Source: a virus (Duplodnaviria > Caudoviricetes). Taken from it: DNA of 26,385 nucleotides. The stretch is from the IMG/VR virus record IMGVR_UViG_3300037846_000096, positions 1 to 26,385 of that record. One strand, 5' to 3'. This document shows positions 1,527-24,267 of this stretch, piece by piece (the stretch's first letter is position 1; the number at the start of each line of letters is the position of its first letter). The notes beneath the pieces were generated by a model. It searched no databases and had not been told where the DNA came from. It saw nothing but the letters and a program-made list of their open reading frames with translations. A program made the translations under genes and the position numbers.

Positions 1527-1564
1527 ATTAAGCTTTGAGGAATTAATAGCGAGGAGTAATTATC

Positions 1565-1828: not shown

Positions 1829-1831
1829 AAT

Positions 1832-2107: not shown

Positions 2108-2134
2108 ACTTATCTAGATTTTTGGACACTCCAG

Positions 2135-2199: not shown

Positions 2200-2265
2200 G
2201 AATGAATAATAACACATTCTCTGGTTAGGTCAACACTCAAACCCCTAATTAAGAGAAAAAATTTT

Positions 2266-3252
2266 ATGTCAGGAAAAATAACAACTTGGGCTTGGACTCT
2301 TCGTTTCGATATACCTTCACATAAATTAGTCATGCTTTCTTTAGCTGATCACGCTGATCCAACTGGTTTATGTTACCCATTTATAGAAACTATTGCTAAA
2401 CATGTTTGTTTAAAAGAAAGTCAAGTAAGGAAAATAATTAGATATTTAGAACAAAAAAATTATATTTCAAGTGAGCCAAGATTTAAACGAAATCATCAAC
2501 AAAGTAGCAATTGTTATCAAGTTAATTATAAAAATTCGTTTCCAACAATCGATGATTCTAATGAAAACTTATCCACAGGGGTGTACTCCAGGATAGCCCC
2601 CCCCTGTACTGTAGGATACCCCCCCCCTGTACTACAGGATAGCCCCCCCCCCTTTAGAATCTCTGAAAAAGATAATGAAAACAATATACTTACAAAAGGT
2701 TCAAATTCAGTAACTAAAAGCTTTATAACTAAGAACATAACTAAAAACTATTGTTCATCTGAAGATGAACTTGGTTCATTTGAACTATTTTGGAATAACT
2801 ACCCAAGAAAGCAAAAGAAGAAAGATGCGTTAAAGATTTGGCGAAAGAACAAACTTTATGAAAACCATAAGCTCATAGTGGAGGATGTACAAAAAAGAAC
2901 AGAACTTAATTGGAAACATAAATCAAAAGAATTTATTCCATTGCCAAGCAGTTATTTGAATGGAGAAAGATGGAGTGATGAGATAATAGATTTTATTAAA
3001 GAACAAAAAATTGTAAAAGAAGTACCAAAACCTAGTCTTGCAAGACAGCAACTAGGAGAAGATAGGCCAAAGATGAGAGATTTCACCCAAGAACGCTTAG
3101 ATCGAGAAGAAGCAGAACTTAAACGACAAGGACTGTCACCAAATGAGCAACATTCATTCTCTGAAACCAATCACCAAAATAACAACCCCGAAACTTCAAG
3201 AAATAACATTAGGAGAAATAGTGTGCAGAAAATTGAAGGATATTTATTTTAA
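2266..3252 (+). CDS. Phage replication initiator (N-terminal wHTH, central ori repeats, FELFW..YPRK...K..A...W domain)
   Basis: HTH_36-like N-terminus, FIPLPSSYLNGERWSDE motif, internal iterons. Confidence 0.85.
   Translation: MSGKITTWAWTLRFDIPSHKLVMLSLADHADPTGLCYPFIETIAKHVCLKESQVRKIIRYLEQKNYISSEPRFKRNHQQSSNCYQVNYKNSFPTIDDSNENLSTGVYSRIAPPCTVGYPPPVLQDSPPPFRISEKDNENNILTKGSNSVTKSFITKNITKNYCSSEDELGSFELFWNNYPRKQKKKDALKIWRKNKLYENHKLIVEDVQKRTELNWKHKSKEFIPLPSSYLNGERWSDEIIDFIKEQKIVKEVPKPSLARQQLGEDRPKMRDFTQERLDREEAELKRQGLSPNEQHSFSETNHQNNNPETSRNNIRRNSVQKIEGYLF
2569..2577 (+). promoter_or_regulatory. DnaA box
   Basis: Perfect TTATCCACA immediately upstream of the iterons. Confidence 0.65.
2582..2652 (+). 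repeat. Three 23-bp tandem iterons (putative replication origin)
   Basis: TGTACT-NN-AGGATA-(G)-C8/C9/C10 starting at 2582, 2605 and 2628, followed by AT-rich sequence. Confidence 0.85.
3125..3137 (+). promoter_or_regulatory. CsrA/RsmA-like hairpin over the SD of ORF 3143
   Basis: GACA-AGGAC-TGTC; GGA lies 10 nt before the ATG. Confidence 0.55.
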
Positions 3253-3409
3253 TGGACAGTCTTGGGAAGAGTGTCATATGAAGATTGCTAATAAATTTAC
3301 AGATTTAAAAAAAGTGTATAGGAAATATTGTCCTGAAAAAACTGAATTAGAGGTTTTAACCGATCTTAGCAACTTTTGTGAAAAAGATTATCATGATTCA
3401 AATGTTTGA
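3143..3409 (+). CDS. Hypothetical protein overlapping the initiator 3' end
   Basis: 88-aa ORF with AAGGA SD hairpin; 110-nt overlap with the initiator. Confidence 0.6.
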   Translation: MSNIHSLKPITKITTPKLQEITLGEIVCRKLKDIYFNGQSWEECHMKIANKFTDLKKVYRKYCPEKTELEVLTDLSNFCEKDYHDSNV

Positions 3410-3514
3410 TTCTAATAATGTTCCACATAGAACTAAAACGGAGTAGAATTTAATAGAACTGTGGTGGCCATGCAATAAACCCTTGATATCCCATAAAGCC
3501 ATCACAGTTTCACT

Positions 3515-3528
3515 ATGAAAGGATTCAT
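3515..3528 (+). promoter_or_regulatory. CsrA/RsmA-like hairpin over the SD of the VRR-NUC gene
   Basis: ATGA-AAGGAT-TCAT; GGA lies 6 nt before ATG 3530. Confidence 0.55.
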
Positions 3529-3529
3529 C

Positions 3530-3997
3530 ATGCTAGACCAAAAACACTCGAATATATTAAAAATTAATAGAAAATGTACAACTTCAGAACGCAAAGAACA
3601 AATCGCTTTAATGACATGGGCGCGAATGCAGTTAATACCATTGGTTGGACATGCCACTGGAGGCCTCAAATCTGCCCGTAGCGGGGCGATCGATAAAAAG
3701 ATGGGGGTAAGTAGGGGGTACCCAGATTTAAGCCTCTTAAAAGCGCACGGCGGATATTTCGGAATGTTCATAGAAATGAAACAAAATCGTACATATCAGC
3801 CCAGTGAGCGCAAAACTGATACATGGCTTGCTCAGATTGAATGTATCAGCAAACTTAATGCTGATGGTTACTATGCAACATTTGCGTACGGGTGGGAGAT
3901 GGGAGCGGCTTACATCAAGCGGTATTTGAGTTTGCCACCGACATTGAGAGAGGGACGCGTATTGATCGAACCTAGCTCATTTGGTTGCATCATATAA
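3530..3997 (+). CDS. VRR-NUC domain (PD-(D/E)xK) nuclease
   Basis: E..EQ.....W, GVSRGYPDL, GYFGMFIEMK and Q......L...GY.A motifs. Start moved from 3515 to 3530 on SD spacing. Confidence 0.85.
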   Translation: MLDQKHSNILKINRKCTTSERKEQIALMTWARMQLIPLVGHATGGLKSARSGAIDKKMGVSRGYPDLSLLKAHGGYFGMFIEMKQNRTYQPSERKTDTWLAQIECISKLNADGYYATFAYGWEMGAAYIKRYLSLPPTLREGRVLIEPSSFGCII

Positions 3998-4026
3998 TTT
4001 AATTTTGGTAGGCTTTAGCTTTAAAA

Positions 4027-4037
4027 GCAAAGGATGC
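4027..4037 (+). promoter_or_regulatory. CsrA/RsmA-like hairpin over the SD of the lysozyme-like gene
   Basis: GCA-AAGGA-TGC; GGA lies 7 nt before the ATG. Confidence 0.5.
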
Positions 4038-4041
4038 CATC

Positions 4042-4401
4042 ATGCTAACACCGCAAATGATAACAAAATTGGAGCAGTCGTGGATAAAACATGAACAATG
4101 CAGAAATTTCCCCTCTACCGCTCACTTGGGCAAAGACCCAGACATCGGTTTTTTTTATAACAAATTGTATGAGGATTTCGAGTGGTTTAGAATTTTAGAC
4201 AATGAAAGACAGCTCGTGCTAATCGATATGTGCAAGATGGGTTATCAAAATTTCTTGAGTTTTAAACGCATGATTAAAGCTATTTCTTTGGGCAACTATG
4301 ATGATGCAGCACAAGAAATGCTCGATAGCAAGTGGGCGCAAACCGATAAAATTCGGGCGCAAGAACTTGCTAAGGCCATGGCATTAGGTGTGTACGAGTG
4401 A
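4042..4401 (+). CDS. T4-type (GH24) lysozyme-like protein with apparently deleted catalytic hairpin
   Basis: C-terminal lobe WF..LD..RQ.VLIDMC.MG...F.RMI.A...NY..AA.EMLDSKWA.....RA..LA..M..G is typical. The TIG.G motif is absent. Confidence 0.8.
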   Translation: MLTPQMITKLEQSWIKHEQCRNFPSTAHLGKDPDIGFFYNKLYEDFEWFRILDNERQLVLIDMCKMGYQNFLSFKRMIKAISLGNYDDAAQEMLDSKWAQTDKIRAQELAKAMALGVYE

Positions 4402-4462
4402 TATACGTAACTAAATTGTTGTTAAATTAGCATTAATGTGAAATGATGTAAATATTATTTTA

Positions 4463-4478
4463 AGCAACGGAATTTGCT
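4463..4478 (+). promoter_or_regulatory. CsrA/RsmA-like hairpin over the SD of the putative terS
   Basis: AGCAA-CGGAAT-TTGCT containing ACGGA; GGA lies 8 nt before ATG 4480. Confidence 0.55.
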
Positions 4479-4479
4479 A

Positions 4480-4908
4480 ATGATTGTTATTACTAATCCT
4501 TCCCAGACTCACTATGACCATCAAGATTTTAACAAAATAGTTGGTACAGTTTATGAAGCAAAAGGCTCACTTGGGCAAATTGCTGATCTAAATTATATTG
4601 CACGGGTCACCTTTTTCGGATGGATAAAACATGGGGATGAAGACCGCAAAGACGGACTTACGACTGAACTTGCTATGCTATCTGCTGAGATTAGAAAGCG
4701 ACAAGCCGAAGTTGTAATCGATTTATGTAACCAAGGTCTTAAAGATTTCAAGCGCGCAAAATTCATTATGTGGTGGCTTGGTCGTGTGTTTAGAGAAGAT
4801 TTTGGTGTTGAAAGTGAAGAAATGAAACTGCTCAAAGACCTCGTATTTAATCAAATTCTACCCAAGATTGTTGCACAAGGAGAGCGCAAAAATGTCAAAG
4901 CAGCCTAA
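4480..4908 (+). CDS. Putative terminase small subunit / HTH protein
   Basis: HTH-like SLGQIADLNYIARVTFFGWIKHG, helical core, W.L.R...EDFG motif, located upstream of terL. ATG 4480 preferred to TTG 4474. Confidence 0.55.
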   Translation: MIVITNPSQTHYDHQDFNKIVGTVYEAKGSLGQIADLNYIARVTFFGWIKHGDEDRKDGLTTELAMLSAEIRKRQAEVVIDLCNQGLKDFKRAKFIMWWLGRVFREDFGVESEEMKLLKDLVFNQILPKIVAQGERKNVKAA

Positions 4909-5495
4909 TCTCCTCGGTAAGATGGCATTCGATGATTTCTGGATAATTCTATATGTCTAATGCAATGGCAATTATGACAAACTGGAATAAGATTATCTAT
5001 TTTTCCATTTTTTCTATTGCCATCTATATGATGAATTACAAGAATTCTTTTATCTTTTATTCCACAGTCGTAACATTTTTTTTCATATACTTTCCATGCA
5101 TTTCTTTGATAACTTCCAGGCATTTCTCTTTCAAGAGATTTAGCTTGATAATCTTTTGCAAAACATTTTTGAGAACAATATTTTCTTACATAATTTCTTC
5201 GTTTAACGAGATTATGTGGCAAATAAAATTCTTTTTTGCAAAAAGTACATATAAAAGTTTTTCCCGTTTTTTGATTCATACTACTACATATTTTAGAACA
5301 AAATTTAGCTTTTATTCTTTTATATTTTTTACTTATGAATTCTTTAGAACAATTAAAACATTTATTTATAATAGGTGGCTTAAGCCGATATATTCCTCCA
5401 CATTTATAGCCACAAGTTTTATATCTATCTTGATGACAAAGTGGAACAGAAAATGCTTTACTACAAATAGGACAAATTTTATCTATTCTTTTCAT
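4905..5495 (-). CDS. HNH endonuclease with N-terminal CxxC zinc-finger repeats
   Basis: CYDCG...LVIHHIDGNRKNGKIDNLIPVCHNCH..H, preceded by three C-x2-C...C-x3-C units. Confidence 0.9.
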   Translation of the reverse strand: MKRIDKICPICSKAFSVPLCHQDRYKTCGYKCGGIYRLKPPIINKCFNCSKEFISKKYKRIKAKFCSKICSSMNQKTGKTFICTFCKKEFYLPHNLVKRRNYVRKYCSQKCFAKDYQAKSLEREMPGSYQRNAWKVYEKKCYDCGIKDKRILVIHHIDGNRKNGKIDNLIPVCHNCHCIRHIELSRNHRMPSYRGD

Positions 5496-5509
5496 AAAGG
5501 AATATTATC

Positions 5510-5698
5510 ATGAGTTCAAAGAAATGGATACAAAAAGCTTTGCCTAAATCAAGCAAAGGAAAACTTCATCGAGAGCTAGGTGTTCCAATGGGTAAAAAAA
5601 TACCTAAATCAAAAATGATCAAAGCACTTCACTCCGAAAATCCTAGAATGAGAAAACAAGCTAATTTGGCTAAAACTTTGCGTGGTTTGCGTAAATAA
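5510..5698 (+). CDS. Small basic phage protein (KWIQKA...G.LH..LGVP.GKKIP type)
   Basis: 62 aa, Lys-rich; a motif I recognise from podophage packaging regions. SD AAGGA. Confidence 0.75.
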   Translation: MSSKKWIQKALPKSSKGKLHRELGVPMGKKIPKSKMIKALHSENPRMRKQANLAKTLRGLRK

Positions 5699-5708
5699 AG
5701 GACAATTT

Positions 5709-5885
5709 ATGAAAAAAGAAGTAGATGAAAAAGCGTGTTTTTTAGGGTTGCCAAATGGATTGAACGGTGATTTAGACTACAACTCTCATTTCGTGCGTGC
5801 TAAAAATCCTAATAAACCTGGGGCAAATAATCGACAAGCAGAAGAAGTCAATGCAGATGAAGTGATGGGCGATATAATGTGCTAG
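5709..5885 (+). CDS. Hypothetical protein
   Basis: ATG 5709 with AAGGA SD preferred to the track start at 5682. Confidence 0.55.
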   Translation: MKKEVDEKACFLGLPNGLNGDLDYNSHFVRAKNPNKPGANNRQAEEVNADEVMGDIMC

Positions 5886-5897
5886 TTAAGGAATTGC

Positions 5898-6059
5898 ATG
5901 GATTGCAAAGGATGCGGCTACAAAGACACGCGGATAATAGAATCTCGTGGCGAAGGTGGTAGTGTAAGAAGGCGTAGACAATGTATGAAATGTGGTTTGA
6001 GGGTAACAACTGAGGAACTCATAAAACCACCAAAGCCAAAGAAAGAGATAAAGACTTGA
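5898..6059 (+). CDS. Stand-alone NrdR-like zinc-ribbon protein (53 aa)
   Basis: [40 protein letters not shown]... SD AAGGA; stop overlaps the terL TTG. Below the ORF-track size cut-off. Confidence 0.85.
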
Positions 6060-7654
6060 GAACTCCCTTTACTCAACTAGATCGTTCAAATAAAGCAGCC
6101 ATTGGCGTTTGTATGGCATATCTTGATACTTACAACAAACGTACACAACGACATATAACATTTGAAGAATCAAGGACGATTATTCATGCAAGCGAAAAGG
6201 ACAAAGTTTATCTGCCTTCTCCAACTGGTAAACTTTTTAGTGAGTCTCGCGGTTTTATTGATCTTGTGTGTGGCCCTTACGGATCGGGAAAGTCAACAAT
6301 GTGTGCACAACGCATCGTCCGATCCGTCTGTAATATGCCGCCCTGGCACAATGGACGAAGAAGAGCAAGATGGGCAATCGTTAGAAACACAAGCGGAGAA
6401 CTTCAATCAACCACATTACAAACATGGCTGCAATGGTTCTCTGATTTGGGAGATATAAAAAAACACCAAAAACCCATTATGACTTACGAGCATTTTTTTA
6501 ATGATGGATTAGGGACAGTTGAACTTGAACTTATATTTATAGCACTTGATAGACCAGAAGATGTAAGAAAAATAAAGTCACTTGAGCTAACTGGTGTTTA
6601 CCTTAATGAACTATCTGAATTACCACAGAATGTACTTTCTCATTTCAAGGGTCGTGTGAATGGAAGATATCCCTCTAAGAGTTTTTGCCCAGAACCTCAT
6701 TGGTCTGGGATTATTGCTGATACTAATCCTCCTGATGAAGACCACTGGATTTATAAAGACTTCGAAGAAAACCCTAGTAGCAACTATCGTATTTTTCATC
6801 AGCCTAGCGGCTTACTTGAAGATAAAGATGGTTTGGTAAAAGATAAAGATGGAAATTATATTCAAAATAAAGAAGCTGATAATATAGAAAATCTTTCAAA
6901 TGATTATTATCCTAAGCTTGCTGAAAAACAATCTGATGGTTTTATAAAGGTCTATTGCTGTGGTAAATATGGATTGGTTGAGTCGGGCAAAAGAGTATAT
7001 CCTGAGTATAATGATGATATTCACTCTATTGATCATATTGAAGCCATACAAGGTGATCCAATTTATCTCGGTTGGGACTTTGGTCTTACTCCTGCTTGTA
7101 TTGTCATACAAATTACTCCACGTGGTAAAGTTCTAGTCCTTAAAGAATATGTTGCAGAAGATATCGGCATTAAAACATTTGCAACTAATATTGTGTTACC
7201 AAGGATCGCAATTGATTTTGTATATAACAAAATTGGCGGTAGTGAGGGAGATCCATCTGGTATGAAGGGCGATGAGATAATGGAGGAACTATCTTGCATT
7301 GGAGAACTTACTAATCTTGGAATTAAAACTAATGCAGCAAGTACAAATGATATTGATGTTAGAATTAATAGTGTTAGATATTTTCTGAATCTTATGGTTG
7401 ATGGAAAGCCTGCGTTCTTGTTATCACGTGAGGGATGCCCGATACTTCGTAAAGGTTTTATGAGCGGATATCATTTTAAACGCATGATGATAGCAGGAGA
7501 TGATCGCTATCAGGATAAGCCAAACAAAAATCGTTTTTCTCATCCTCATGATGCGCTACAATATAATCTCATGCGATTTGCAGCAGATAGAGTAATTGAG
7601 CGAACAAGTAAGCCAGAAGTAGATATGTTTAATCCAATTCTTAGGATATTTTAG
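6056..7654 (+). CDS. terL: Terminase large subunit
   Basis: Walker [23 protein letters not shown], Walker B VYLNE, DTNPP, nuclease motifs GWDFGLTPA and SHPHDALQY. Start may be ATG 6113. Confidence 0.95.
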
Positions 7655-7655
7655 A

Positions 7656-7856
7656 ATGAAGTTATATGAATTATTGATTAGTTCTAAGAAATATTCTTTG
7701 TTAAGAAGATCTTCGTGGGAAATAAAAGAATCTTTTTTAATTCTGCCAATAAATAGATATCAAAATTTATATATTTTAACTTTAGCAGAAGAGTTGATGA
7801 TTTATAACCCCACACTTGATGATCTAGTCGCTGATGATTGGGAAATATATAAATGA
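7656..7856 (+). CDS. Tad2/DUF2829-like protein (possible anti-defence sponge)
   Basis: RRSSW near the N-terminus and C-terminal YNPTLDDLVADDWEIY. Confidence 0.65.
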   Translation: MKLYELLISSKKYSLLRRSSWEIKESFLILPINRYQNLYILTLAEELMIYNPTLDDLVADDWEIYK

Positions 7857-7899
7857 TAATTATCTTTTACTTTCAAGATGTGCATCATTAAGGAGAATT

Positions 7900-8070
7900 A
7901 TGCTATTGGAAATAACTATAGAAAATCAAGATAAAAATGATTGTCATCCATTGATTATTAGGCATCATGAAGAAGATATGCAATGCGTAAGAGTTTATGT
8001 AGATGAATCTCATGTAACAGTTAATATAGAAGAACTTAGACTTGCTTTACGTAAGATAAACACTAAATGA
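7900..8070 (+). CDS. Hypothetical protein
   Basis: ATG 7900 with TAAGGAG SD, preferred to 7834. Confidence 0.6.
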   Translation: MLLEITIENQDKNDCHPLIIRHHEEDMQCVRVYVDESHVTVNIEELRLALRKINTK

Positions 8071-8082
8071 TTAGGAGTAAAT

Positions 8083-8241
8083 ATGAATCCAATTGAAAAT
8101 AAAAAATTAGTGTTACAGAATGATTTTGATATAAGACGACAAGTTAAAGGTATATTAGAAGATTATCTAGGTATTGAAAAGCCAAAAGAATTAAGGAACC
8201 AAGAATTATTTTATAGAGCTACAAACTACAGAGGAAGTTAA
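8083..8241 (+). CDS. Hypothetical protein (52 aa)
   Basis: MNPIENKKLVLQNDFDIRRQ..., SD AGGAG. Not in the ORF track. Confidence 0.55.
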   Translation: MNPIENKKLVLQNDFDIRRQVKGILEDYLGIEKPKELRNQELFYRATNYRGS

Positions 8242-8244
8242 ACG

Positions 8245-8400
8245 ATGCCGCCATTAGTAAAAGGTTCAAAAGCTAGGACGCCTAAAGGATTTTCAGAAAA
8301 TGTAAGACGAGAAAGATCAGAAGGCAAAAAGATGGATCAAAGTGTTGCCATTGCTTATTCAGAGGCACGCGGAAAGAAAAAGAAATCTAAGAAAAAATAA
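8245..8400 (+). CDS. Small basic phage protein (MP.L.KG......S.N...E...GK...Q.VAIAYS.A type)
   Basis: MPPLVKGSKARTPKGFSENVRRERSEGKKMDQSVAIAYSEARGKKKKSKKK. SD GAGGA. Not in the ORF track. Confidence 0.75.
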   Translation: MPPLVKGSKARTPKGFSENVRRERSEGKKMDQSVAIAYSEARGKKKKSKKK

Positions 8401-8454
8401 GCTATAATCTTCTTAGGTGGTGGTTTACAGGGACGGCAAATTAAGGAGACTAAA
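8401..8454 (+). promoter_or_regulatory. Late promoter (GC-TATAAT) and leader with CAGGGACG and AAGGA sites
   Basis: TATAAT at 8403-8408 with no -35. CAGGGACG at 8428-8435 matches the Csr motif CANGGAYG. Confidence 0.5.
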
Positions 8455-8718
8455 ATGCCTATTCAATCGTTACGCACGAATTTTCCAGGCGATAATTATC
8501 AAAGCGCGCGTTTAGTAAGATTACACTCAACTGATGCCCTTGCAACTTGTACGGCAGCAGGATATCTAAATAATTACTTAATAATGCAAAGTATTCCACT
8601 CTATACCACTGATTTTGTTCATCTTGCCGCTTTAGATGGGACTCAAATTTATAAGCCAGCATTCACGAATGGAACGCCTTTTAATGGTGGCAGTGTTCAG
8701 CTAGTTGCATTATCTTAA
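8455..8718 (+). CDS. Hypothetical protein, probably virion-associated
   Basis: 87-aa ORF, strong SD TAAGGAG, directly before the portal. Confidence 0.7.
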   Translation: MPIQSLRTNFPGDNYQSARLVRLHSTDALATCTAAGYLNNYLIMQSIPLYTTDFVHLAALDGTQIYKPAFTNGTPFNGGSVQLVALS

Positions 8719-8723
8719 TGAAT

Positions 8724-8876
8724 TGCGCTAGCGTGTCATCTCGCGAGATGATGACTTTAAAACTCCTTGAGTCCGGTGGACGTCTGGATAAGCCAGACTA
8801 GCGCAGAGAATTCCAGGTTCACTCCTCGTGACCGCTAAGCCAAGTTTCCCCACACTTGCGGAATAAAAGCTGGGGA
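8724..8876. ncRNA. Candidate structured RNA (multibranch fold) upstream of the portal
   Basis: Closing stem TGCGCTAG(8724-8731)/CTAGCGCA(8798-8805) enclosing several hairpins, then two more hairpins; GC-rich against its surroundings. Confidence 0.5.
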
Positions 8877-8883
8877 TTTAACT

Positions 8884-8899
8884 TAACCAAGGAAGGTTA
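8884..8899 (+). promoter_or_regulatory. CsrA/RsmA-like hairpin over the portal SD
   Basis: TAACC-AAGGAA-GGTTA; the last A is the A of the ATG. Confidence 0.7.
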
Positions 8900-11100
8900 T
8901 GGAGCGCGACCCTAAAGATGTGAATCACGACCTATCGCAAGAAACATTGAGCGAGATGGAAGAGAGACGCATAGCAATGATGGATGAAGCTGGCGTTGAT
9001 GAAAAAGAAGTACTTATTAAAGCTGGCAAGCACTTAAACATTTGGAATAGTTATTTCAATGAAAATATCGTCAGAGGTAAAGACGATATGAACTTTTGCT
9101 TAAGAGACCAGTGGACTGCTGTTGAGAGATCAGAGTTTACGAGACTTTTTAAACCTGCCATGACATTTAATAAACTTTATGATCCAGTAAAGAAGATAGC
9201 CGGAGAACAGCGGAAAAACAAACCAGACCTAATAGTAAGATCCCTAACGGGAAAGGCAACACAGGAACAAATAAACTTACGAGCAGATTTAGTACGTACA
9301 ATATCATATCAATCTCAGAATGATTTAGTTTACCAAACAGCATTTAAGTCAGCTCTTATGATGGGTTTCGGTGCATTCCAAATTTGTTTAGATTATGAAT
9401 CGCCTAAATCATTTAATCAAATCATTCGTTATGAGATGATATCTGATCCTACGCGTACTGCATTTGATGCAACAGCATTAAAACCACATAAAGGGGATGG
9501 GAACTATTGTGCAAGATACTATGTATTTACTCGGGATGAATTCTTTGCAACCTATCCTTATGTCACTAATCCCGTATCTTATGTCGATCCATATATGCTT
9601 TTGGATTTCCAATGGCAAACCAGAGATACTATTACAGTTTGTGATTACTTTGTAAAAGAATGGTTTCCTCTTATAATTTATAAACTATCTAATGGAGAGG
9701 TGGTAAATGAAAATGAATGGGAAGCGCTGCAGGCGAATTTTAAAATGCAAAGGGAAATTACCAAAGGATCTGTGGTCGAAAAAATTGTTGAAAATGAAAT
9801 GCCTAGGATTGTGGGAGAGCGTCAAACGCAAGATTATCGGATAATGCACTATAGAATGATTCGTGATCAAATAATTGATTTCTCAGAATGGCCATCTAAA
9901 AACTTACCAATTATATTCGTTGATGGAGATTCGTATTATATTGAAGGCCGTCAATATACTAAGAGTTTCATTCATGAAGCTAGAGATGCTCAAAAATGCG
10001 TTAATTATTTCGGAAGTGACATCGTTGCAGACGTTAAAAATAGAAGACGTGAACAATGGCTCGGTACCCCTGATAATATTTCAGGATATGAGCAAGACTG
10101 GCGAAATCCAGAGTTGCAAATGGGATTGTTACGCGCTAAACCTGATCCTAAAACTGGTCAGATGCCTGTCAAGCAGCCCCCCTGGGATCTCTCACCAGCA
10201 ATTATGCAAAATTTTCAACGTGCTACACAAGATATACGAGAGATTCTCGGTTTTTCTGAAACAGAAGCGCTTCAAGGTCGTGATATCTCAGGAAAAGCAA
10301 GACGTGAACGCAAATTGGAAGGGTCAATGAGTGCTTACGTTTATTTTGATAACATGAACCAAGCAGTTGAACAAGGCGGTAGGGTCGTTAATGATTTATT
10401 GCCATACATTATTGGTAATGATGAACGTAGAATGGTTATTAGTAAAAACGATGGAAAAACCGATCCTGTAACCATAAATGAAAAGCAATCAGATGGTACA
10501 ATTAAAAATGATTTAGGGATTGGTGATTTTGATGTTGAGATAAATTCAGGGCCATCATTTGCTGTCCAAAAAGAAGTTGCTCTGGAATTCTTCCAACAAA
10601 CAATTTCTAATAATCCACAGATATTTAACCTTATTGCAGACCTTTGGGCAGGGAATCTTGATATTCAACAAATGCAGCAAGTTAAAGACCGCTTAAAGAG
10701 TCTTGTACCTCCTGAAATATTAGCAAAAGAAGAAGGTAAACAACCACCGCAACCACAACCCAATCCTCAAATGATGATGATGCAGGCAGAATTACAAGGC
10801 AAACAAGCAGACATTCAAAATAAAATGGCTGAAACCAAGATCAAAGCTGAGAAATTACAACTTGAGAGAGAACAAGCGCAACTAGACCATGCAAAACTAT
10901 TATTAGAAGCGCAAAAAATCCAGACTGATGCACAATTAAATATATTCGATCATAAGATTAATTTAGAGACTGCAAAAGCCCGTCATCATATGGACGGTAA
11001 AAAGACTGAACTCGATTTCACTCATCAAATAGCCAAGATATTGAGCGATATCAAGAAAGAAGAGGCTAAGGTTAATAAAGAGAATAAGAAAGAAGAATAA
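8899..11100 (+). CDS. Portal protein, P22 gp1-like
   Basis: 733 aa, D..F....QW, TFNKL..., GFGA, SGKA..ER, G.FDV.I.SGPSFA.QK motifs and a C-terminal coiled coil; follows terL. Confidence 0.93.
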   Translation: MERDPKDVNHDLSQETLSEMEERRIAMMDEAGVDEKEVLIKAGKHLNIWNSYFNENIVRGKDDMNFCLRDQWTAVERSEFTRLFKPAMTFNKLYDPVKKIAGEQRKNKPDLIVRSLTGKATQEQINLRADLVRTISYQSQNDLVYQTAFKSALMMGFGAFQICLDYESPKSFNQIIRYEMISDPTRTAFDATALKPHKGDGNYCARYYVFTRDEFFATYPYVTNPVSYVDPYMLLDFQWQTRDTITVCDYFVKEWFPLIIYKLSNGEVVNENEWEALQANFKMQREITKGSVVEKIVENEMPRIVGERQTQDYRIMHYRMIRDQIIDFSEWPSKNLPIIFVDGDSYYIEGRQYTKSFIHEARDAQKCVNYFGSDIVADVKNRRREQWLGTPDNISGYEQDWRNPELQMGLLRAKPDPKTGQMPVKQPPWDLSPAIMQNFQRATQDIREILGFSETEALQGRDISGKARRERKLEGSMSAYVYFDNMNQAVEQGGRVVNDLLPYIIGNDERRMVISKNDGKTDPVTINEKQSDGTIKNDLGIGDFDVEINSGPSFAVQKEVALEFFQQTISNNPQIFNLIADLWAGNLDIQQMQQVKDRLKSLVPPEILAKEEGKQPPQPQPNPQMMMMQAELQGKQADIQNKMAETKIKAEKLQLEREQAQLDHAKLLLEAQKIQTDAQLNIFDHKINLETAKARHHMDGKKTELDFTHQIAKILSDIKKEEAKVNKENKKEE

Positions 11101-11343
11101 CTAACCTATTATTTTAGCCATATGAAGTATTATTCCACCGAATAAAGTTATGATCAAAGCTATTTGCGTTAAAATAGTTCCTAATACCCAGTGAAAGTTA
11201 GAATCCATTTTAGCTAATAATTGAATTTTATCTTCTTTCATTTCTCTAACGATTATATCAAAACGATCGTCAATTTTGCGTGATATCTCTTCAAGCAATC
11301 TAATCCTAACTTCATGATCTATATATTCATGACTTGCACTCAT
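11101..11343 (-). CDS. Coiled-coil protein with C-terminal transmembrane helix (DUF1640/XhlA-like architecture)
   Basis: HEVRIRLLEE...KMDSNFHW plus hydrophobic tail. SD GAGGAG and its own promoter. Confidence 0.75.
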   Translation of the reverse strand: MSASHEYIDHEVRIRLLEEISRKIDDRFDIIVREMKEDKIQLLAKMDSNFHWVLGTILTQIALIITLFGGIILHMAKIIG

Positions 11344-11381
11344 CTTATCTCCTCATTTTTAAAAACTAGTAAGGGCTTAAT

Positions 11382-11390
11382 ATTATATCA
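11382..11390 (-). promoter_or_regulatory. Extended -10 promoter
   Basis: TG-A-TATAAT on the minus strand, ~40 nt upstream of ATG 11343. Confidence 0.6.
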
Positions 11391-11404
11391 CAGGATAAAA
11401 AAAT

Positions 11405-11434
11405 GATAAACAATGAGTGGGTGACACCCACTCA
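11405..11434 (-). terminator. Putative intrinsic terminator
   Basis: Perfect inverted repeat TGAGTGGGTG-A-CACCCACTCA (11414-11434), followed on the minus strand by TTGTTTATC. Confidence 0.55.
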
Positions 11435-11447
11435 AAATATTCACTGG

Positions 11448-11543
11448 TTAATTCACACAACTTATCCTAAAGTTAGTGGGCTTATTTGTTTTATCTTTGG
11501 TCGCTGCACCAAACAGCGGCTTTTGACATTTATGATTGCTCAT
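11448..11543 (-). CDS. Putative 31-aa small protein
   Basis: MSNHKCQKPLFGAATKDKTNKPTNFRISCVN, SD AGAGGAG 10 nt upstream, terminator-like hairpin just downstream. Confidence 0.4.
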   Translation of the reverse strand: MSNHKCQKPLFGAATKDKTNKPTNFRISCVN

Positions 11544-11770
11544 TGTTTCTAGTCTCCTCTAAGCGCACTTCGTGAGAAAATAACATAATACGTTATATAA
11601 TGTAATCAATTAATAACATTTAGATTAAATATTAATCAATTATAACTTGCGATAATAAAAGTTATAGTTGGGGAAAATAACTAACCTTATTTTCTACATA
11701 GTTAGTTTCCCCAATTGCCACCCGTGCTGTTCCCTTCCCATTAAAGAGAAATGCGTTTTATGTCAAGGTG

Positions 11771-11803
11771 AAAAAAGTTGCCGCAGCATGTTATGGCAAC
11801 TTT
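11771..11803 (-). terminator. Intrinsic terminator of the tRNA transcript
   Basis: AAAGTTGCC...GGCAAC followed by TTTTTT on the minus strand, ~36 nt after the last tRNA. Confidence 0.65.
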
Positions 11804-11839
11804 ACTAGGTGCTAATAGCTACTAGTTTTGTATAATTAT

Positions 11840-11912
11840 TGCTACCTGTCAGGATCGAACTGACGACCTACGATTTACGAAACCGTTGCTCTACCAACTG
11901 AGCTAAAGTAGC
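11840..11912 (-). tRNA. tRNA-Thr(CGT)
   Basis: Full cloverleaf GCTACTT/AGGTAGC, D arm GCTC/GAGC, anticodon loop TTCGTAA, T loop TTCGATC. CCA not encoded. Confidence 0.95.
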
Positions 11913-11917
11913 ATTAA

Positions 11918-11988
11918 TGCCCAAGATAGGAATCGAACCTATGCCTTTTGATTACAAATCAACTGCACTACCTTTGTGCTACTCGGGC
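11918..11988 (-). tRNA. tRNA-Thr(TGT)
   Basis: Cloverleaf GCCCGAG/CTTGGGC, D arm GCAC/GTGC, anticodon loop TTTGTAA (one G-A mismatch in the stem), T arm ATAGG-TTCGATT-CCTAT. CCA not encoded. Confidence 0.9.
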
Positions 11989-12242
11989 TTTATATTCGCA
12001 GCCAATAGTATCATTGTTAGATATATTGATAATGATTTACGAATTTTATAATTTTCTTTCGAATAATTTTTATGATATTCCTGATTATCAGGTTTTTTTC
12101 TTTGTTTTTCTTGCGCTTTATTCCATTGTGATTTAAGACATTTATGACATGAATACCATGATCTATTTTTAGTAGTTTTAAGCTTAAAAATGGTAAATCC
12201 ATGTTTTTTACAATTTCTTTTCTCTTCAAATGCTTTAATCAT
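11979..12242 (-). CDS. Basic Zn-finger-like protein (CKKHG...CHKC), probably leaderless
   Basis: 87-aa ORF with ATG 7 nt after a TATAAT box; the stop codon lies within tRNA-Thr(TGT). Confidence 0.6.
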   Translation of the reverse strand: MIKAFEEKRNCKKHGFTIFKLKTTKNRSWYSCHKCLKSQWNKAQEKQRKKPDNQEYHKNYSKENYKIRKSLSIYLTMILLAANIKPE

Positions 12243-12278
12243 GCCGCGGATTATAAATCATATGCCATATAAAGTAAA
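12243..12278 (-). promoter_or_regulatory. Sigma70 promoter with GC-rich discriminator
   Basis: TTTACT(12278-12273)-17 nt-TATAAT(12255-12250)-CCGCGGC-ATG. Confidence 0.7.
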
Positions 12279-12300
12279 CTACGAAACACCATATATAGCG

Positions 12301-12329
12301 TTGTTATACTGACCACATCAGCCTAAAAT
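12301..12329 (+). promoter_or_regulatory. Promoter of the scaffold/coat operon
   Basis: TTGTTA(12301-12306)-17 nt-TAAAAT(12324-12329), with C at -13. Confidence 0.55.
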
Positions 12330-12338
12330 TGAGTCTAA

Positions 12339-12357
12339 CGTGTGCAGGATGTACACG
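12339..12357 (+). promoter_or_regulatory. CsrA/RsmA-like hairpin at the 5' end of the scaffold leader
   Basis: CGTGTGC-AGGAT-GTACACG (7-bp stem with one G-U), ~60 nt upstream of the ATG, so it is not the SD. Confidence 0.6.
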
Positions 12358-12417
12358 GGGCGAACGAACCGCCTAATGTTCGGGGCAACAAGAATGCCGC
12401 GTGTGGAGTAGTAGATT

Positions 12418-13197
12418 ATGGATAATCGTCAGGACGACAAGGAAGTATTGACAGAAGAAGTTGGAGAAAGTTTAGGGGAACCTGAGGCTGCTATTTCAGA
12501 AGTAATAGAAGCTGAGGGCAAGGATAATGACCCTCTGTATGTTCAGAAACGTTTGAAACAACAGAAGCGGGCACACGATAGGGACATGCGTGAATTGCAG
12601 GCAAGGATTAGCCAAATGCAAACCCAATTATCACCCCAACAACCACAATTTCAAGAAGCCAATAGTCCCTATGATCAAGGAGGAAACTCTGGATCAGTAG
12701 AAGACGCTATCCGCAAAGCGGTAAGTTTTGCGCTCCAACAAAGGGATGTCGAAGAGCGTAAAGCTAGAGATATGCAGTCACAAGCCCACATATCAAGGCA
12801 GTATCAAGATTTACAAAAACATCTTGATAGTACAGCCGATAAATATGACGATTTTGATGAAGTCGTTAGAGGTGAAACTGTAAATATCACTCCGCACATG
12901 CGTGATGCAGCACTAATGCTCCCAAAAAAAGGTGCAGGAAGTGCAGGAGAAGTCCTCTACAAATTAGGTAAAAATCCTGAAGAATTAATCCGAATCTCAA
13001 AACTACCACCAATAGATCAAGCAAGTGAACTCGTAAAACTGAGTCATGCTTTGGTTTCAGGCGGTGAGCAAAAAGGTTCATCCCCACGTCCACTAGGACA
13101 GATCAAAGCAAATCCAGTTACGAATTCCCAAGGTGTCACGGAAAAGACATCGCCCGCAGCTATTAGGGCACTCATGAAAGCTGGAAAGTTTAAATAA
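12418..13197 (+). CDS. Capsid scaffolding protein
   Basis: Acidic N-terminus, VQKRL coiled coil, KYDDFDEVV, G.EVLY.LGKNPEE..RI..L.P..QA.EL.KL; located between portal and coat. Confidence 0.85.
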   Translation: MDNRQDDKEVLTEEVGESLGEPEAAISEVIEAEGKDNDPLYVQKRLKQQKRAHDRDMRELQARISQMQTQLSPQQPQFQEANSPYDQGGNSGSVEDAIRKAVSFALQQRDVEERKARDMQSQAHISRQYQDLQKHLDSTADKYDDFDEVVRGETVNITPHMRDAALMLPKKGAGSAGEVLYKLGKNPEELIRISKLPPIDQASELVKLSHALVSGGEQKGSSPRPLGQIKANPVTNSQGVTEKTSPAAIRALMKAGKFK

Positions 13198-13212
13198 CTT
13201 TTCTTTTTTTAT

Positions 13213-13242
13213 AAACGGAATTTTTTACTAACAAGGATGTTA
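13213..13242 (+). promoter_or_regulatory. Paired CsrA/RsmA-like sites in the coat leader
   Basis: AAA-CGGAA-TTT (13213-13223) and TAAC-AAGGAT-GTTA (13229-13242); the GGAs are 18 nt apart. Confidence 0.7.
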
Positions 13243-13246
13243 TAAA

Positions 13247-14458
13247 ATGCCTAATCAATTTATTACAACGCAATTAGTTAGCAATACTGCACTTGCAATG
13301 TTCGCTAACAATAGTCCATTTGTCATGACGGGTTCAAGAATCTATCAGGACGATTTTCAAAACTCAGGTTATAAGATTGGCGATACGTTACAAGTTCGTC
13401 GCCAAAATAATTTTGTCGTAGGTGATGGTTCAACTGCTGTTCCGCAAGATATTATTGAGACTGTTGAAAATATAACTGTTGCACATCAATACCATGCGCT
13501 CATTGCCTATACTGTTCAGGATTTAACTTTGCGAATTGAAGATTTCTCTCGCATGTTTATTCAACCTGCAATTCAAAATATCATTACGCAAATGGAACGA
13601 GATATTTGTTCAGATGCAGAACAAGAACTTTATTTATTTCAAGGGTCAGCAGGTTCTCCAATAAATTCCTTTAGCTCAGTAGATTTAGCAGGCGCTAAGC
13701 TTCTTGAGCAGGGAGTAAACATTGCATCTGATGCGTATCTTGCCATGACAGTGCGCGACGGATCATCGTTAAAAGCTGCTCTTTTAAATAACTTTACGCC
13801 AGTATTTAATGAAGAAATTGTAAGACAATCAGCAATTGGCCATTTATCTTATTTTGATATTTTCCAATCTCAAAATATTGTAACCCATGTAGCAGGTGCA
13901 GGACCTACTTTACATCCAGGTGATACGTTACTTGTTAATGGAACTGTCGCATCAGGAAATACGATTGTATTATCCGGTGCAACTGGTGCTGTTACTAATT
14001 ACTTTTTACCAGGTGATTTAATTTCAATTGCAGGCGTTCATTCTGTAAATCCATTATCTCGTGCCTCAACCGGTCAGAACATGCAATTTGTGATTACTGC
14101 TGCTAGCAGTTCATCAGGTGGTGGTGCGCTTACAATCCAAGTAAGCCCAACGATTATTAGTGCAACTTCATCTCCTTTGCAAAATGTAGATGTTGCAGTA
14201 CCGACGGGACAAGCAGTATCAGTTGTTCCTAGTTACCATGTTAATGTTGCCTATCCATCTCGTGCATTAGATATCGTTTGTCCGCCTCTTTATAAATTAC
14301 AAGTTCCATATGCAAGTGTTGCCGTTGATCCTGAAACGGGATTATCACTTGCTGTAACACAAACTGGTGACATTTTAGGATATCAAAACTTAATGCGGCT
14401 CGATATTTTATGCGGGTTTAAATGGCATCCTCAATATGCAGTTAAATTATTGTCTTAA
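13247..14458 (+). CDS. Major capsid protein, P22 gp5-like
   Basis: MPN.FIT, KIGDTLQVR, F....SQN..TH.AG, GD.I.IAGV.SVNP, R.DIL.G.K...P..AV. Confidence 0.95.
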   Translation: MPNQFITTQLVSNTALAMFANNSPFVMTGSRIYQDDFQNSGYKIGDTLQVRRQNNFVVGDGSTAVPQDIIETVENITVAHQYHALIAYTVQDLTLRIEDFSRMFIQPAIQNIITQMERDICSDAEQELYLFQGSAGSPINSFSSVDLAGAKLLEQGVNIASDAYLAMTVRDGSSLKAALLNNFTPVFNEEIVRQSAIGHLSYFDIFQSQNIVTHVAGAGPTLHPGDTLLVNGTVASGNTIVLSGATGAVTNYFLPGDLISIAGVHSVNPLSRASTGQNMQFVITAASSSSGGGALTIQVSPTIISATSSPLQNVDVAVPTGQAVSVVPSYHVNVAYPSRALDIVCPPLYKLQVPYASVAVDPETGLSLAVTQTGDILGYQNLMRLDILCGFKWHPQYAVKLLS

Positions 14459-14469
14459 GGAGATTTTAA

Positions 14470-14769
14470 ATGAAGAACAGATATGATGGAGCGCCAGGAA
14501 AAGACGCTGCAATTTCAAATACTCGTCACAAACGTTTTGAAGCAGAACACAGAGAAAAAAATGCTTTTGTGAAACGCGAACAAGCAGCCCTTTCAAAATA
14601 TGAAGGCCATAATCCAGTTATGAGCAATGAACTCATGGAATTTAATGCGAACATGCAAAATACTGGGCAATGGGCACAAGGATTTTGCGATAAGTTGACT
14701 GAAGGATTGGATAAAGTTGCATTTCCAATCAATGAAGACCCAGGTCACGGTAATGGTCGAAAGATGTAA
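14470..14769 (+). CDS. Hypothetical protein
   Basis: 99-aa ORF after the coat gene, SD TAAGGAG. Confidence 0.7.
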   Translation: MKNRYDGAPGKDAAISNTRHKRFEAEHREKNAFVKREQAALSKYEGHNPVMSNELMEFNANMQNTGQWAQGFCDKLTEGLDKVAFPINEDPGHGNGRKM

Positions 14770-14781
14770 GAGACAAATGGA

Positions 14782-15828: not shown

Positions 15829-15829
15829 T

Positions 15830-17734: not shown

Positions 17735-17736
17735 AC

Positions 17737-18000: not shown

Positions 18001-18008
18001 ATCTTTAA

Positions 18009-18024
18009 CTTACAAGGATGTAAG
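18009..18024 (+). promoter_or_regulatory. CsrA/RsmA-like hairpin over the SD of the first ejection gene
   Basis: CTTAC-AAGGAT-GTAAG; contains UACAAGGAUGU, matching 11 of 12 positions of the CsrA SELEX consensus RUACARGGAUGU. Confidence 0.75.
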
Positions 18025-18026
18025 GT

Positions 18027-18608
18027 ATGGACTTAGCAAATGGATTAGGTGGAATATTTAACGGATTATTTGGAAATTCTGGCGCTCCTTTTGATAAAGC
18101 TAGCAAAGCCTTAAATCCTTTCTTTGATCGAGCAATTGGCGCGCAAAATCCTTTCTTTAATGCTGGAAAGGAAAGTATCCCTCAATTTCAACAATTTCTG
18201 CAAATGATGCAAGACCCCAATAAGTTTATCAATGATTTAATGGGAAATTATCAAGAATCTCCTTATGCTAAATACCAACAAGATCAGGCCATGCGTACAG
18301 CTACAAACATGGGTTCCGCTAGTGGTCTTTCTGGTTCAACACCTTTAACACAATTTGCCCAGAAAAATGCGCGTGATATCTCATCTGAAGACATGAATCA
18401 ATGGTTACAGAATGTATTAGGTATTAATACGCAATATGGAGAAGGACTTCAGCGAATGATGGGAATGGGTCAAAATGCTGCCAATATGATAAGCCAATTA
18501 AATCAAAATTTTGGCGGCGCTCAAGCAGGTCTTGCATATGGAAAAGAGAGAGGACGTCAGCAGGATCAAAGAGGATTATGGGGCGGTTTAATGGATATAT
18601 TATTTTAA
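18027..18608 (+). CDS. DNA transfer/ejection protein (P22 gp7-like)
   Basis: Gly/Ala/Gln-rich, PF..AG, SP...YQ..Q......N..SA.GL.GS motifs. Confidence 0.75.
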   Translation: MDLANGLGGIFNGLFGNSGAPFDKASKALNPFFDRAIGAQNPFFNAGKESIPQFQQFLQMMQDPNKFINDLMGNYQESPYAKYQQDQAMRTATNMGSASGLSGSTPLTQFAQKNARDISSEDMNQWLQNVLGINTQYGEGLQRMMGMGQNAANMISQLNQNFGGAQAGLAYGKERGRQQDQRGLWGGLMDILF

Positions 18609-18619
18609 GGATTAAAATA
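18601..18619 (+). promoter_or_regulatory. CsrA/RsmA-like hairpin over the SD of the second ejection gene
   Basis: TATTTTA-AGGAT-TAAAATA, ending on the A of the ATG. Confidence 0.55.
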
Positions 18620-21566: not shown

Positions 21567-21570
21567 ATAT

Positions 21571-23217: not shown

Positions 23218-23223
23218 TTTAAG

Positions 23224-23284
23224 GCTATAATACGGAAACGTTTCACGGATTGAAACTTATTAACTAACCAAGGAAGGTACTAAA
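23224..23284 (+). promoter_or_regulatory. Late promoter (GC-TATAAT) and leader with two CsrA/RsmA-like hairpins
   Basis: TATAAT 23226-23231; GTTTCA-CGGAT-TGAAAC 23240-23256; ACC-AAGGAA-GGT 23267-23278 over the SD. Confidence 0.7.
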
Positions 23285-24220
23285 ATGGCTTTTCAACAAT
23301 ACAATGTTTATGATGGTTTAACAGCAGTAAGAATTGTCGATATTGCAAATCTTGCTGGTACATATTTCAATGGACAAGTAAATAACGGCGTAGGCGCGAC
23401 CCTTACTGTTACCGCAACTGGGGTTTTAACCATTGACAGTGTAGCTCTAAATTCTGGTGATTCTATACTCTTAGTTGCTCAAACTGCTGCAAATCAAAAC
23501 GGTATTTATATCGTCTCAAATCCAGGTGCAACGGGCATCCAACCGGTACTCACGCGGCGTGCTGATGAACAAAACATTGAACAAATTAGGGCTGGTCAAT
23601 TTGTAACTGTCGGCGCTGGCACTGTCAACAATGGCACCGTATGGTCAATTGTTGAGCCATTACCGGCCCAATTTGGGATTAGCAATTTTGTATGGGTAGA
23701 TAGTTCTGGGCTTTCTGGCGGTGGCCTTGGTACTGCGTCTACCAAAGCTGCATCAAACAATGCCCAACCCTCCGTTGCATCAGTATCTGGGGCAACAGTG
23801 ATTGGCGACCTTGCTATGTTTGCCGATACCGCAGGAACTGTAACGGATTCAACCATTGCAGCAAGCAATGTTGTTGTTAAAAATGCAGTAAATGTAATGG
23901 CTGCTGGTTCTGCTATTACAATGGCAAAAGTAAATGGTACTGAGGCTGCTAATGCAGTGACTGCAAGTGGGGTCGCTGGATTACTAACCACCTCAGCATT
24001 AACAACTGCTGGTGCTGGTAATTATGCCATTACATGGACCAATACTTTCATTACTGCAACTTCATCTGTTCTGATTATGCTTGCAGGTGGTACCAACACA
24101 ACTGAAAACATTACGATTAAATGCGCACCAGGAGCTGGAACTGCAACGCTTACTATCTATAACAATACAGCAGCAACAGCACTCAATGGCACAATTTTAA
24201 TGAGCTATTTAGTAATGTAA
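23285..24220 (+). CDS. Virion fibre/decoration protein
   Basis: Ala/Thr/Gly-rich; GD.ILL..QT....NGIY.V...G......LTR..D motif typical of phage fibres. Confidence 0.7.
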   Translation: MAFQQYNVYDGLTAVRIVDIANLAGTYFNGQVNNGVGATLTVTATGVLTIDSVALNSGDSILLVAQTAANQNGIYIVSNPGATGIQPVLTRRADEQNIEQIRAGQFVTVGAGTVNNGTVWSIVEPLPAQFGISNFVWVDSSGLSGGGLGTASTKAASNNAQPSVASVSGATVIGDLAMFADTAGTVTDSTIAASNVVVKNAVNVMAAGSAITMAKVNGTEAANAVTASGVAGLLTTSALTTAGAGNYAITWTNTFITATSSVLIMLAGGTNTTENITIKCAPGAGTATLTIYNNTAATALNGTILMSYLVM

Positions 24221-24225
24221 TTGAT

Positions 24226-24250
24226 AAGGAGGGCTTAAAACCCTCCTTTT
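24226..24250 (+). terminator. Intrinsic terminator
   Basis: AAGGAGGG-CTTAAAA-CCCTCCTT-TT directly after the stop codon. Confidence 0.75.
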
Positions 24251-24267
24251 AAGATAAGGATATCTTA
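24250..24267 (+). promoter_or_regulatory. CsrA/RsmA-like hairpin over the SD of the spike-base gene
   Basis: TAAGAT-AAGGAT-ATCTTA, ending on the A of the ATG. Confidence 0.65.

Follow-up and report, generated by a model that had tools for sequence, protein, structure and literature searches.

The RNA ligands of CsrA and RsmE follow the consensus RUACARGGAUGU and present an ANGGAN loop (PMC7652899). AUGGA in loops also occurs among CsrA-type ligands (PMC5207318), an 18-nt dimer spacing of CsrA sites has been described (PMC4894983), and CsrA homologues vary in their loop tolerance (PMC13443453). In the operators of CsrA, RsmA and RsmE (glgC, hcnA, psl), ANGGAN is carried in short loops, with one site on or beside the Shine-Dalgarno (SD) sequence and a second within bridging distance (PMC7652899). 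A similar arrangement, with candidate second sites, is present in a 26,385 nt fragment of a P22-like podophage (IMG/VR record IMGVR_UViG_3300037846_000096, hereafter the window) and in its relatives, where, unlike the described operators, the sites lie on phage morphogenesis mRNAs and are putative. Their pattern, stem-A-N-GGA-H-stem with short stems and candidate second sites, is of the CsrA/RsmE ligand type. We consider it likely (probability about 0.6) that host CsrA or RsmA binds the A(N)GGA sites of this family and represses translation of its morphogenesis genes.

Sites are also concentrated in the first ~430 nt of the scaffold mRNA (here termed the scaffold 5' RNA), which invites comparison with RNAs that titrate CsrA. 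The Campylobacter flaA mRNA and the Salmonella fimAICDHF leader are abundant structural-gene mRNAs that are CsrA targets and titrate CsrA for the same assembly pathway (PMC4894983). Unlike these, the present RNA belongs to a phage, carries seven to eight conserved sites, most of them coding and made by synonymous codons, and we infer the titration. The sRNAs CsrB, CsrC, RsmY and RsmZ likewise carry multiple GGA loops on one RNA, with CAGGAUG-type repeats, whereas the scaffold 5' RNA has no Rfam match, is sparser in GGA (14 in 414 nt) and codes for protein.

Phages are known to engage the Csr system. Loss of rsmA induces a podovirus-like prophage in Serratia ATCC 39006 (PMC4046660), but the accessible text of that study contains no GGA sites or direct targets (0 occurrences), and the present phage shows no integrase. 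Phage csrA genes have been described (PMC11879866, PMC9144972) and were found in 30 of 2517 phages (PMC7366521), and the accessible text of PMC8545117 holds nothing on phage targets. While the phages encoding CsrA (PTXU04 gp28, JC1 gp47, VvAW1 gp26) resemble the present family in engaging this system, VvAW1 has csrA and no site excess (2/34), and the present family has sites and no csrA that we could find. The targets of T4 RegB differ in that they are unstructured GGAG/U sequences in early SDs and come with a regB gene, whereas the sites described here are structured and late, without a RegB match. No description of a CsrA-site regulon on phage late mRNAs was found in the literature searched, which excluded subscription papers, and the family-wide test, the coding sites and the scaffold RNA are new here.

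GGA-loop hairpins at Shine-Dalgarno sequences

The window has a G+C content of 35% and carries portal, coat, terminase, scaffold and ejection genes, as identified by PHROG and Pfam scans. The same phage is also represented by a longer record, G001 (34,375 nt; 99.99% identity, circularly permuted), whose ORFs beyond the window include tail and recombination genes and others for unknown proteins; none of the 14 of these that were scanned gave an integrase match. The coat protein has 223 relatives in IMG/VR, of which 80 were kept (78–100% identity), and its closest cultured phages are at most 30% identical. Twenty-four virus records were fetched, 21 of which were used as whole sequences and three, being fragments, via their loci only. 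The controls were 12 annotated P22-like phages, including P22, phages of Vibrio, Shewanella, Thalassomonas, Pseudomonas, Xanthomonas, Rhodoferax and Acetobacter, and Chlorobiaceae CV-1-33, and a single gene caller was applied to all family and control genomes. The family members are relatives and hence not independent, but their stems are nonetheless highly diverse.

A preliminary description of the window had listed ten genes with the SD GGA in a hairpin loop 5–10 nt before the start codon, and all ten motifs and distances were found as reported. A hairpin was counted where the whole GGA fell within a loop of 4–9 nt closed by a contiguous stem of at least 4 bp with dG <= 0, and expected numbers were obtained by fixing the NNGGAN core and start codon and shuffling the flanks. 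Eight of the ten sites pass (those at 4027 and 23267 have 3-bp stems), together with one that had been overlooked, at 5690–5711. Of 39 starts examined in the window, 28 have an SD GGA, and the nine hairpins among them compare with 1.84 expected (P = 3e-5). Across the 21 family genomes, 164 of 770 GGA-SDs lie in hairpins (46.8 expected), while the 12 controls show no excess (33/413, 31.8 expected), Chlorobiaceae CV-1-33 being the lone control with a signal (6/30, p 0.02). The predicted excess over SD-fixed shuffles is thus seen in the window and the family and not in the controls. Five family genomes do not reach significance: G016 (0/30), G021 (2/28), G010, G013 and G014.

The hairpins are concentrated on late genes, as had been proposed. 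In the 21 genomes, the block from terS to the tail genes accounts for 124 of 400 GGA-SDs (25.9 expected), the other genes on the coat strand (middle genes) for 25 of 149 (10.5 expected), and the early strand for 15 of 221 (11.1 expected). The idea of a genome-wide lock is too broad, however, as hairpins occur at only about one third of late genes with a GGA-SD, and frequencies in relatives are near chance for the lysozyme gene (1/13), terL (2/16), the gene following coat (7/59), the scaffold SD (1/65) and the gene behind the 18601 site (2/8). A further claim, that hairpin SDs read GGAT, GGAA or GGAC and others GGAG, survives as a tendency only: across the family, the base after GGA is G in 31/164 SDs that lie in hairpins and in 239/606 that do not, but the hairpin-free SDs at 1003, 5898, 7656 and 8245 of the window read GGAT or GGAA.

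Conservation was scored gene by gene, counting distinct leaders with an SD GGA; three portal, seven ejection and eight terS leaders were dropped for want of one, some having mis-called starts. The connector gene was omitted from these counts and coat starts were set separately. As a second control, 3' flanks were exchanged between orthologues (swapped). Hairpins at the portal, ejection and terS genes are strongly conserved (Table 1), and four pair positions of the portal stem exceed 500 of 500 permutations, each with at least four pair types. Two further cases are a 548-aa gene (21/32 leaders, 23% swapped), whose hairpin is absent from the window, and one tail family (9/16, 5% swapped). The covariation that the preliminary description had looked for in homologues is therefore present at the portal, ejection and one tail gene, and at terS in a stem more conserved than covarying, but not at the lysozyme gene, 18601 or the early sites. 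Internal single mismatches in the stems are more often G-U (32) than A-C (10), and this surplus points to sense-strand RNA as the acting form; GGA-loop hairpins number 300 on the sense strand and 48 on the antisense strand. A occupies position -2 relative to the SD GGA in 38/40 portal leaders, 36/36 ejection leaders and 32/32 leaders of the 548-aa gene. Whole single leaders fold no better than shuffles (z of 0.50 for portal, -0.44 for coat, -1.36 for ejection and -0.66 for terS); the signal is the placement of GGA in the loop and the covariation of the stem, not overall leader folding. The pattern first observed is real and conserved, but narrower and richer than originally described.

GGA sites outside the Shine-Dalgarno sequence

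The objection that GGA is simply the SD core fails because four kinds of site lie outside SDs: a 7-bp hairpin in the scaffold leader (P1), extra ANGGA sequences in coat leaders, AUGGA across start codons, and GGA made by synonymous codons within the scaffold gene. P1 folds with a z of -3.78, and its loop contains GGA in 41 of 66 scaffold leaders. Fresh metagenome loci supplied 21 further leaders, after removal of duplicates, of two with long inserts and of one that lacked a called start; 16 of the 21 pass, the loop is AUGA in four, and in the remaining one GGA sits in a bulged stem. All seven pairs have changed on both sides (7/7, in an alignment fitted to the model). A scaffold-leader model derived from 52 of the original 66 leaders has matches in 30 of the 31 close loci and in none of the 18 distant podophage loci (together 49 of 69 loci) or the 12 controls; a weak second match (E 0.047) occurs at L097:8960-9060 (+), and in G002. 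In 23 of 41 leaders of relatives, a -10-like hexamer is found 16–18 nt before the P1 loop GGA, and this distance leads to a predicted transcript start in the window near 12337. The replacement of AGGA(N) by AUGA(N) recurs on different branches and affects P1 of G005, L007, L009, L017, L023, L065, L169, L170, L191 and L199; long hairpins upstream of a 106-aa tail-region gene have an AUGA(N) loop likewise in G002, G006 and G021.

Coat leaders are rich in additional sites. Sixty-six of 70 carry a GGA apart from the SD, with 89 such sites against 19 after shuffling, and extra ANGGA sequences number 76 against 5.9; the base after GGA is never G. Of the 89 sites, 50 lie 4–5 nt from the coat SD GGA, 20 lie 18–20 nt away and 10 lie 9 nt away. 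Candidate second sites elsewhere are the AUGGA sequences at the start codons of portal and scaffold; terS and the 548-aa gene are mostly single-site. AUGGA spans the start codon of 60/66 scaffold, 35/42 portal, 14/40 ejection and 9/26 terS genes and is lacking in 21 of 31 listed families; selection on the protein for an acidic residue at position 2 is another possible cause of such starts.

Over the initial 330 nt of the scaffold genes, the motif count is 432, compared with 272 +/- 13 after synonymous shuffling, and the following 330 nt show no such excess. Codons 5 and 8 are CAG in 78% and 95% of sequences (median column 23%), the top of 23 Gln columns; codon 63 is AGG in 90% (median 4%), the top of 51 Arg columns; codon 109 is the Lys codon AAG in 92% (median 24%), the top of 18 Lys columns; and codon 55 is AGG or CGG in 50 of the 62 rows listed. 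Synonymous codon choice thus creates GGA at five scaffold positions (codons 5, 8, 55, 63 and 109). Codon 109 falls in the apical loop of a long, conserved stem-loop, 12724–12765, which is the most over-folded window of the gene relative to synonymous recoding (-11.2 vs -5.9 kcal/mol). No U-tract terminator was found at the scaffold 5' RNA segment.

Contigs corresponding to this segment were found in four soil metatranscriptome runs from four studies, one in each, at 99% identity or more. The runs had been selected using 11300–14500, and pair up by year and library, perhaps representing two campaigns; the data are contigs, without strand or level. Other phage pieces were seen only in run X4, where there are five short ones (compared over 1–24700 for X4–X6 and 1–13600 for X7), and phage regions without RNA contigs have no bearing on expression. 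The contigs are a weak hint of a discrete scaffold 5' RNA, and their loop-located ends could reflect a bounded RNA, a fold-back artefact or cleavage. The two top-matching DNA runs are also soil metagenomes and a possible source, and DNA run X3 (share 0.21) contains short phage pieces only.

The putative reader and its alternatives

A quick IQ-TREE search on coat, with 63 rows and many forks left open, places G016 together with L064 (SH-aLRT 99), the two being nested within clades rich in sites. All 11 site features score zero in G016, and so do all seven that could be scored in L064, but the leader stems, and a pseudoknot in the scaffold leader described below, are kept despite the loss of GGA. 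Most sites have also been lost in G021, L066, L085 and L083. Such joint loss fits a single trans-acting reader.

The preliminary description had allowed for a phage CsrA homologue or Rsm-like sRNAs elsewhere in the genome, and neither was found. PF02599 (csrA) gave no match in the 24 virus records (0/24), and a profile of our own made from three csrA sequences, four-fold smaller, recovered VvAW1 csrA (a profile member) and gave nothing below E 2 in the 21 genomes. Rfam searches detected no Csr-type sRNA family, returning tRNAs and one chance match in the window and one tRNA in seven stretches of relatives. The host is the presumed source of CsrA.

The host may plausibly be a gammaproteobacterium. 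Homologues of an early G004 gene occur in five of 400 genomes of one bin's class, and these five, which are gammaproteobacterial, all carry csrA; the best plasmid matches to the replication protein are from Piscirickettsia (32% identity), and two small phage proteins had no plasmid match. Two other routes to the host were rejected: the five genome matches to the coat protein are contigs of phage size that were binned with unrelated taxa, and 30 relatives of one bin lack the portal. A Dot/Icm-bearing host is unsupported, as DotH/IcmK occurs in only two of the five genomes sharing the early gene, compared with 89 of 400 overall, and the DotA family gave no match. No integrated copy was seen among 69 metagenome loci (longest 39.8 kb), and neither an integrase family nor a host-flanked contig among the fetched loci of the family. 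Separately, G218 (loci L159, L164 and L166) is a 2.0-Mb genome with nine csrA-family matches.

Under the proposed mechanism, host CsrA or RsmA would occupy the SD-region sites of the portal, terS, ejection and coat mRNAs and block ribosome loading, and head assembly and packaging would be held until free CsrA falls. The scaffold transcript, untranslated in the held state, would end early, and the scaffold 5' RNA, with its sites set between two strong hairpins, would titrate CsrA as soon as its promoter becomes highly active; release from repression may come from this RNA or from host Csr sRNAs. We infer that the binder is CsrA, host-derived and repressive on binding, and, more weakly, that the scaffold 5' RNA both arises by early termination of its transcript in the held state and acts as a CsrA sink. 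A fuller version is possible but rather doubtful: the opening 430 nt of the scaffold mRNA would act as a CsrB-like sponge written in synonymous codons and would be the chief RNA, in soil, of a phage held without integration, and CsrA titration would switch on the portal, terminase, coat and ejection genes together. If CsrA repression is correct, virion output would be tied to host physiology at translation, without a repressor-integrase switch, in a large family; if the sponge is real, the phage would have a lysis-timing switch made wholly of RNA and a borrowed host protein. The sites could then flag csrA-bearing hosts for uncultured phages, and, being short, could be tested in E. coli reporters, with the loss lineage as a natural control.

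Several observations weigh against repression by CsrA. A number of the ten sites first noted are not conserved, and no excess is seen in P22 or in five further phages that infect gammaproteobacteria, so the hairpins are not a general phage trait. The joint loss is a single clear event, and scaffold sites correlate modestly with those elsewhere (Spearman 0.41, n=37, without kinship correction). A codon outlier can arise elsewhere, as one terL column is 87% AGG (15 rows). The contigs come from preselected runs, and both of their ends lie at hairpin-loop GGAs, as a library artefact could give. The P1 loop is AUGA in the four fresh leaders and in several earlier ones from different branches, and canonical CsrA should bind AUGA loops poorly.

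These AUGA loops would be accommodated by a phage-encoded RNA-binding protein of another fold that recognizes A-(G/U)-G-A loops and, like RegA in T4, coordinates late translation. The confinement of the trait to this family also favors it, and several small conserved proteins of unknown function are available. We nevertheless judge it fairly unlikely, as the consensus and spacing are close to those of CsrA and no gene family present in the site-rich genomes is missing only in G016 (50% cover, E < 1e-8; small divergent genes can escape). There is a slim chance that the loops are instead cleavage signals for a GGA-specific endoribonuclease, RegB-like or from the host, that sets subunit stoichiometry, with the 400-nt RNA as its product. 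The contig ends at 12347 (two runs) and 12743 (two runs) are each just 5' of a loop GGA, and RegB cuts GGAG/U in SDs, but structure inhibits it and its targets are early genes (PMC3014915), whereas the sites here are structured and late. The contigs also run through internal sites uncut, and no RegB-like gene was detected with PHROG or Pfam in the window or in the remainder of G001.

The hairpins of P1, terS and the 548-aa gene lie at a fixed distance after a -10-like box, SD hairpins occur on genes of low-copy proteins, and single leaders fold weakly, all of which would suit weak hairpins that tune initiation and 5'-terminal hairpins that protect mRNA behind late promoters, GGA being merely the SD. 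Against this, no fixed -10-like box precedes the portal and ejection hairpins, and the non-SD GGA of P1, the extra coat ANGGA, the synonymous scaffold GGA and the joint loss of GGA while stems stay are left unexplained; we hold it to be quite improbable. The same three hairpin classes just downstream of a -10-like box might be late-promoter or operator palindromes acting as DNA. This is scarcely credible, because the arms vary freely with compensation, G-U mismatches exceed A-C three to one, the GGA loops are mostly on the sense strand, and the sites track start codons. CsrA or RsmA from the host remains the reading we prefer.

Scaffold-leader pseudoknot and positions of features

Between P1 and the scaffold SD, the leader contains an H-type pseudoknot and a conserved GGCA/TGCC hairpin (Table 1). 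The pseudoknot pattern parsed 49 of 66 leaders, and its second stem has at least four Watson-Crick pairs in 42 of the 49, with 31 different sequences, compared with 19% after partner swap; the window is among the 17 unparsed leaders, and its CGAAC/GTTCG pairing was read directly. The pseudoknot is retained in the lineage stripped of GGA sites, and because it outlasts them it likely has another ligand. It is a separate element and a likely candidate for the operator of scaffold autoregulation. The T4 gene 32 operator is a pseudoknot, and the P22 scaffold is autoregulated. Scaffold autoregulation as in P22 is a possible precedent, for which a literature search gave no paper. The T4 and P22 cases are alike in regulating their own synthesis, and here too a leader pseudoknot precedes a structural gene, but its sequence is unrelated and the leader model has no match in P22 or the 11 other controls. 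Autoregulation of gp32 in T4 is described in PMC3014915. A catalogue of structured RNAs from IMG/VR lists DNAVirus_7287 upstream of P22 coat genes and DNAVirus_5306 upstream of scaffold genes (PMC10690425); the two leader motifs of the present family were not found in six of its supplementary files. Rfam has no family for the pseudoknot, which adds another structured RNA without an Rfam match.

Table 1. Positions of genes, hairpins and other RNA features in the window.
Feature	Position	Strand	Remarks
SD hairpin within end of replication gene	3125..3137	+	p 0.011; three homologues only
SD hairpin of VRR-NUC nuclease (start 3530)	3515..3528	+	weakly conserved; 4/14 vs 4% shuffled
Lysozyme-gene 3-bp hairpin	4027..4037	+	not conserved
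terS SD hairpin	4463..4478	+	16/19 (27 examined); swap 43%
SD hairpin	5690..5711	+	7 bp, p 0.013
Portal SD hairpin	8884..8899	+	33/40 leaders (43 examined); 8% shuffled, 20% swapped
Portal gene, P22-like	8899..11100	+	PF16510
Predicted scaffold promoter, TTGTTA-17-TAAAAT	12301..12329	+	promoter scan at chance level overall
P1 hairpin, AGGAU loop, not SD	12339..12357	+	~65–70 nt upstream of scaffold start; overlooked in preliminary description
Segment in contigs of four soil RNA runs	12347..12799	+	12350-12743, 12347-12799, 12347-12748, 12354-12743
H-type pseudoknot	12358..12382	+	GGC 12359-61 with GCC 12371-73; CGAAC 12365-69 with GTTCG 12378-82
Conserved GGCA/TGCC hairpin	12384..12398	+	just before scaffold SD (GTGGAG 12403-12408)
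Scaffold gene	12418..13197	+	PHROG 8865
AUGGA across scaffold start codon	12418..12423	+	candidate second site
Scaffold coding GGA sites, rare synonymous codons	12430..12610 (12432, 12441, 12582, 12605)	+	codon-column statistics
Long coding stem-loop, GGA (12744) in apical loop	12724..12765	+	z -3.65; predicted 3' boundary of scaffold 5' RNA
Coat leader: upstream ACGGAA and SD hairpin TAACA-AGGA-TGTTA	13215..13242	+	GGAs 18 nt apart
Coat gene, P22-like	13247..14458	+	PF11651
Ejection-protein SD hairpin (PHROG 598)	18009..18024	+	27/36 (43 examined); 12% shuffled, 17% swapped
A+T-only SD hairpin	18601..18619	+	not conserved; p 0.062
3-bp SD hairpin	23267..23278	+	partly conserved; 8/29 vs 5% shuffled; under threshold in window
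Tail-region gene SD hairpin	24250..24267	+	partly conserved; 8/27 vs 8% shuffled

Several other features of these genomes were seen. The portal gene is preceded by a long intergenic stretch (8719–8880) with several inverted repeats, such as GTCTGG-ATAAG-CCAGAC, that are not common to the leaders of relatives viewed. Between the portal and scaffold genes, two tRNA-Thr genes (CGT, TGT) lie at 11839–11988 (-), opposite to the late-gene strand. Just 5' of terL is a gene (5898–6059) for a 53-aa Zn-ribbon protein of the NrdR N-terminal family, present in 19 of the 21 genomes and a candidate late regulator, and after terL is a gene (7656–7856) for a protein with a Tad2-like (Thoeris anti-defence) domain, a paralogue of which occurs elsewhere in G001. 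In G016, the ORF for the terminase large subunit (9896–12506, -) specifies 869 aa, compared with about 525 in relatives, possibly reflecting an intein or insertion.

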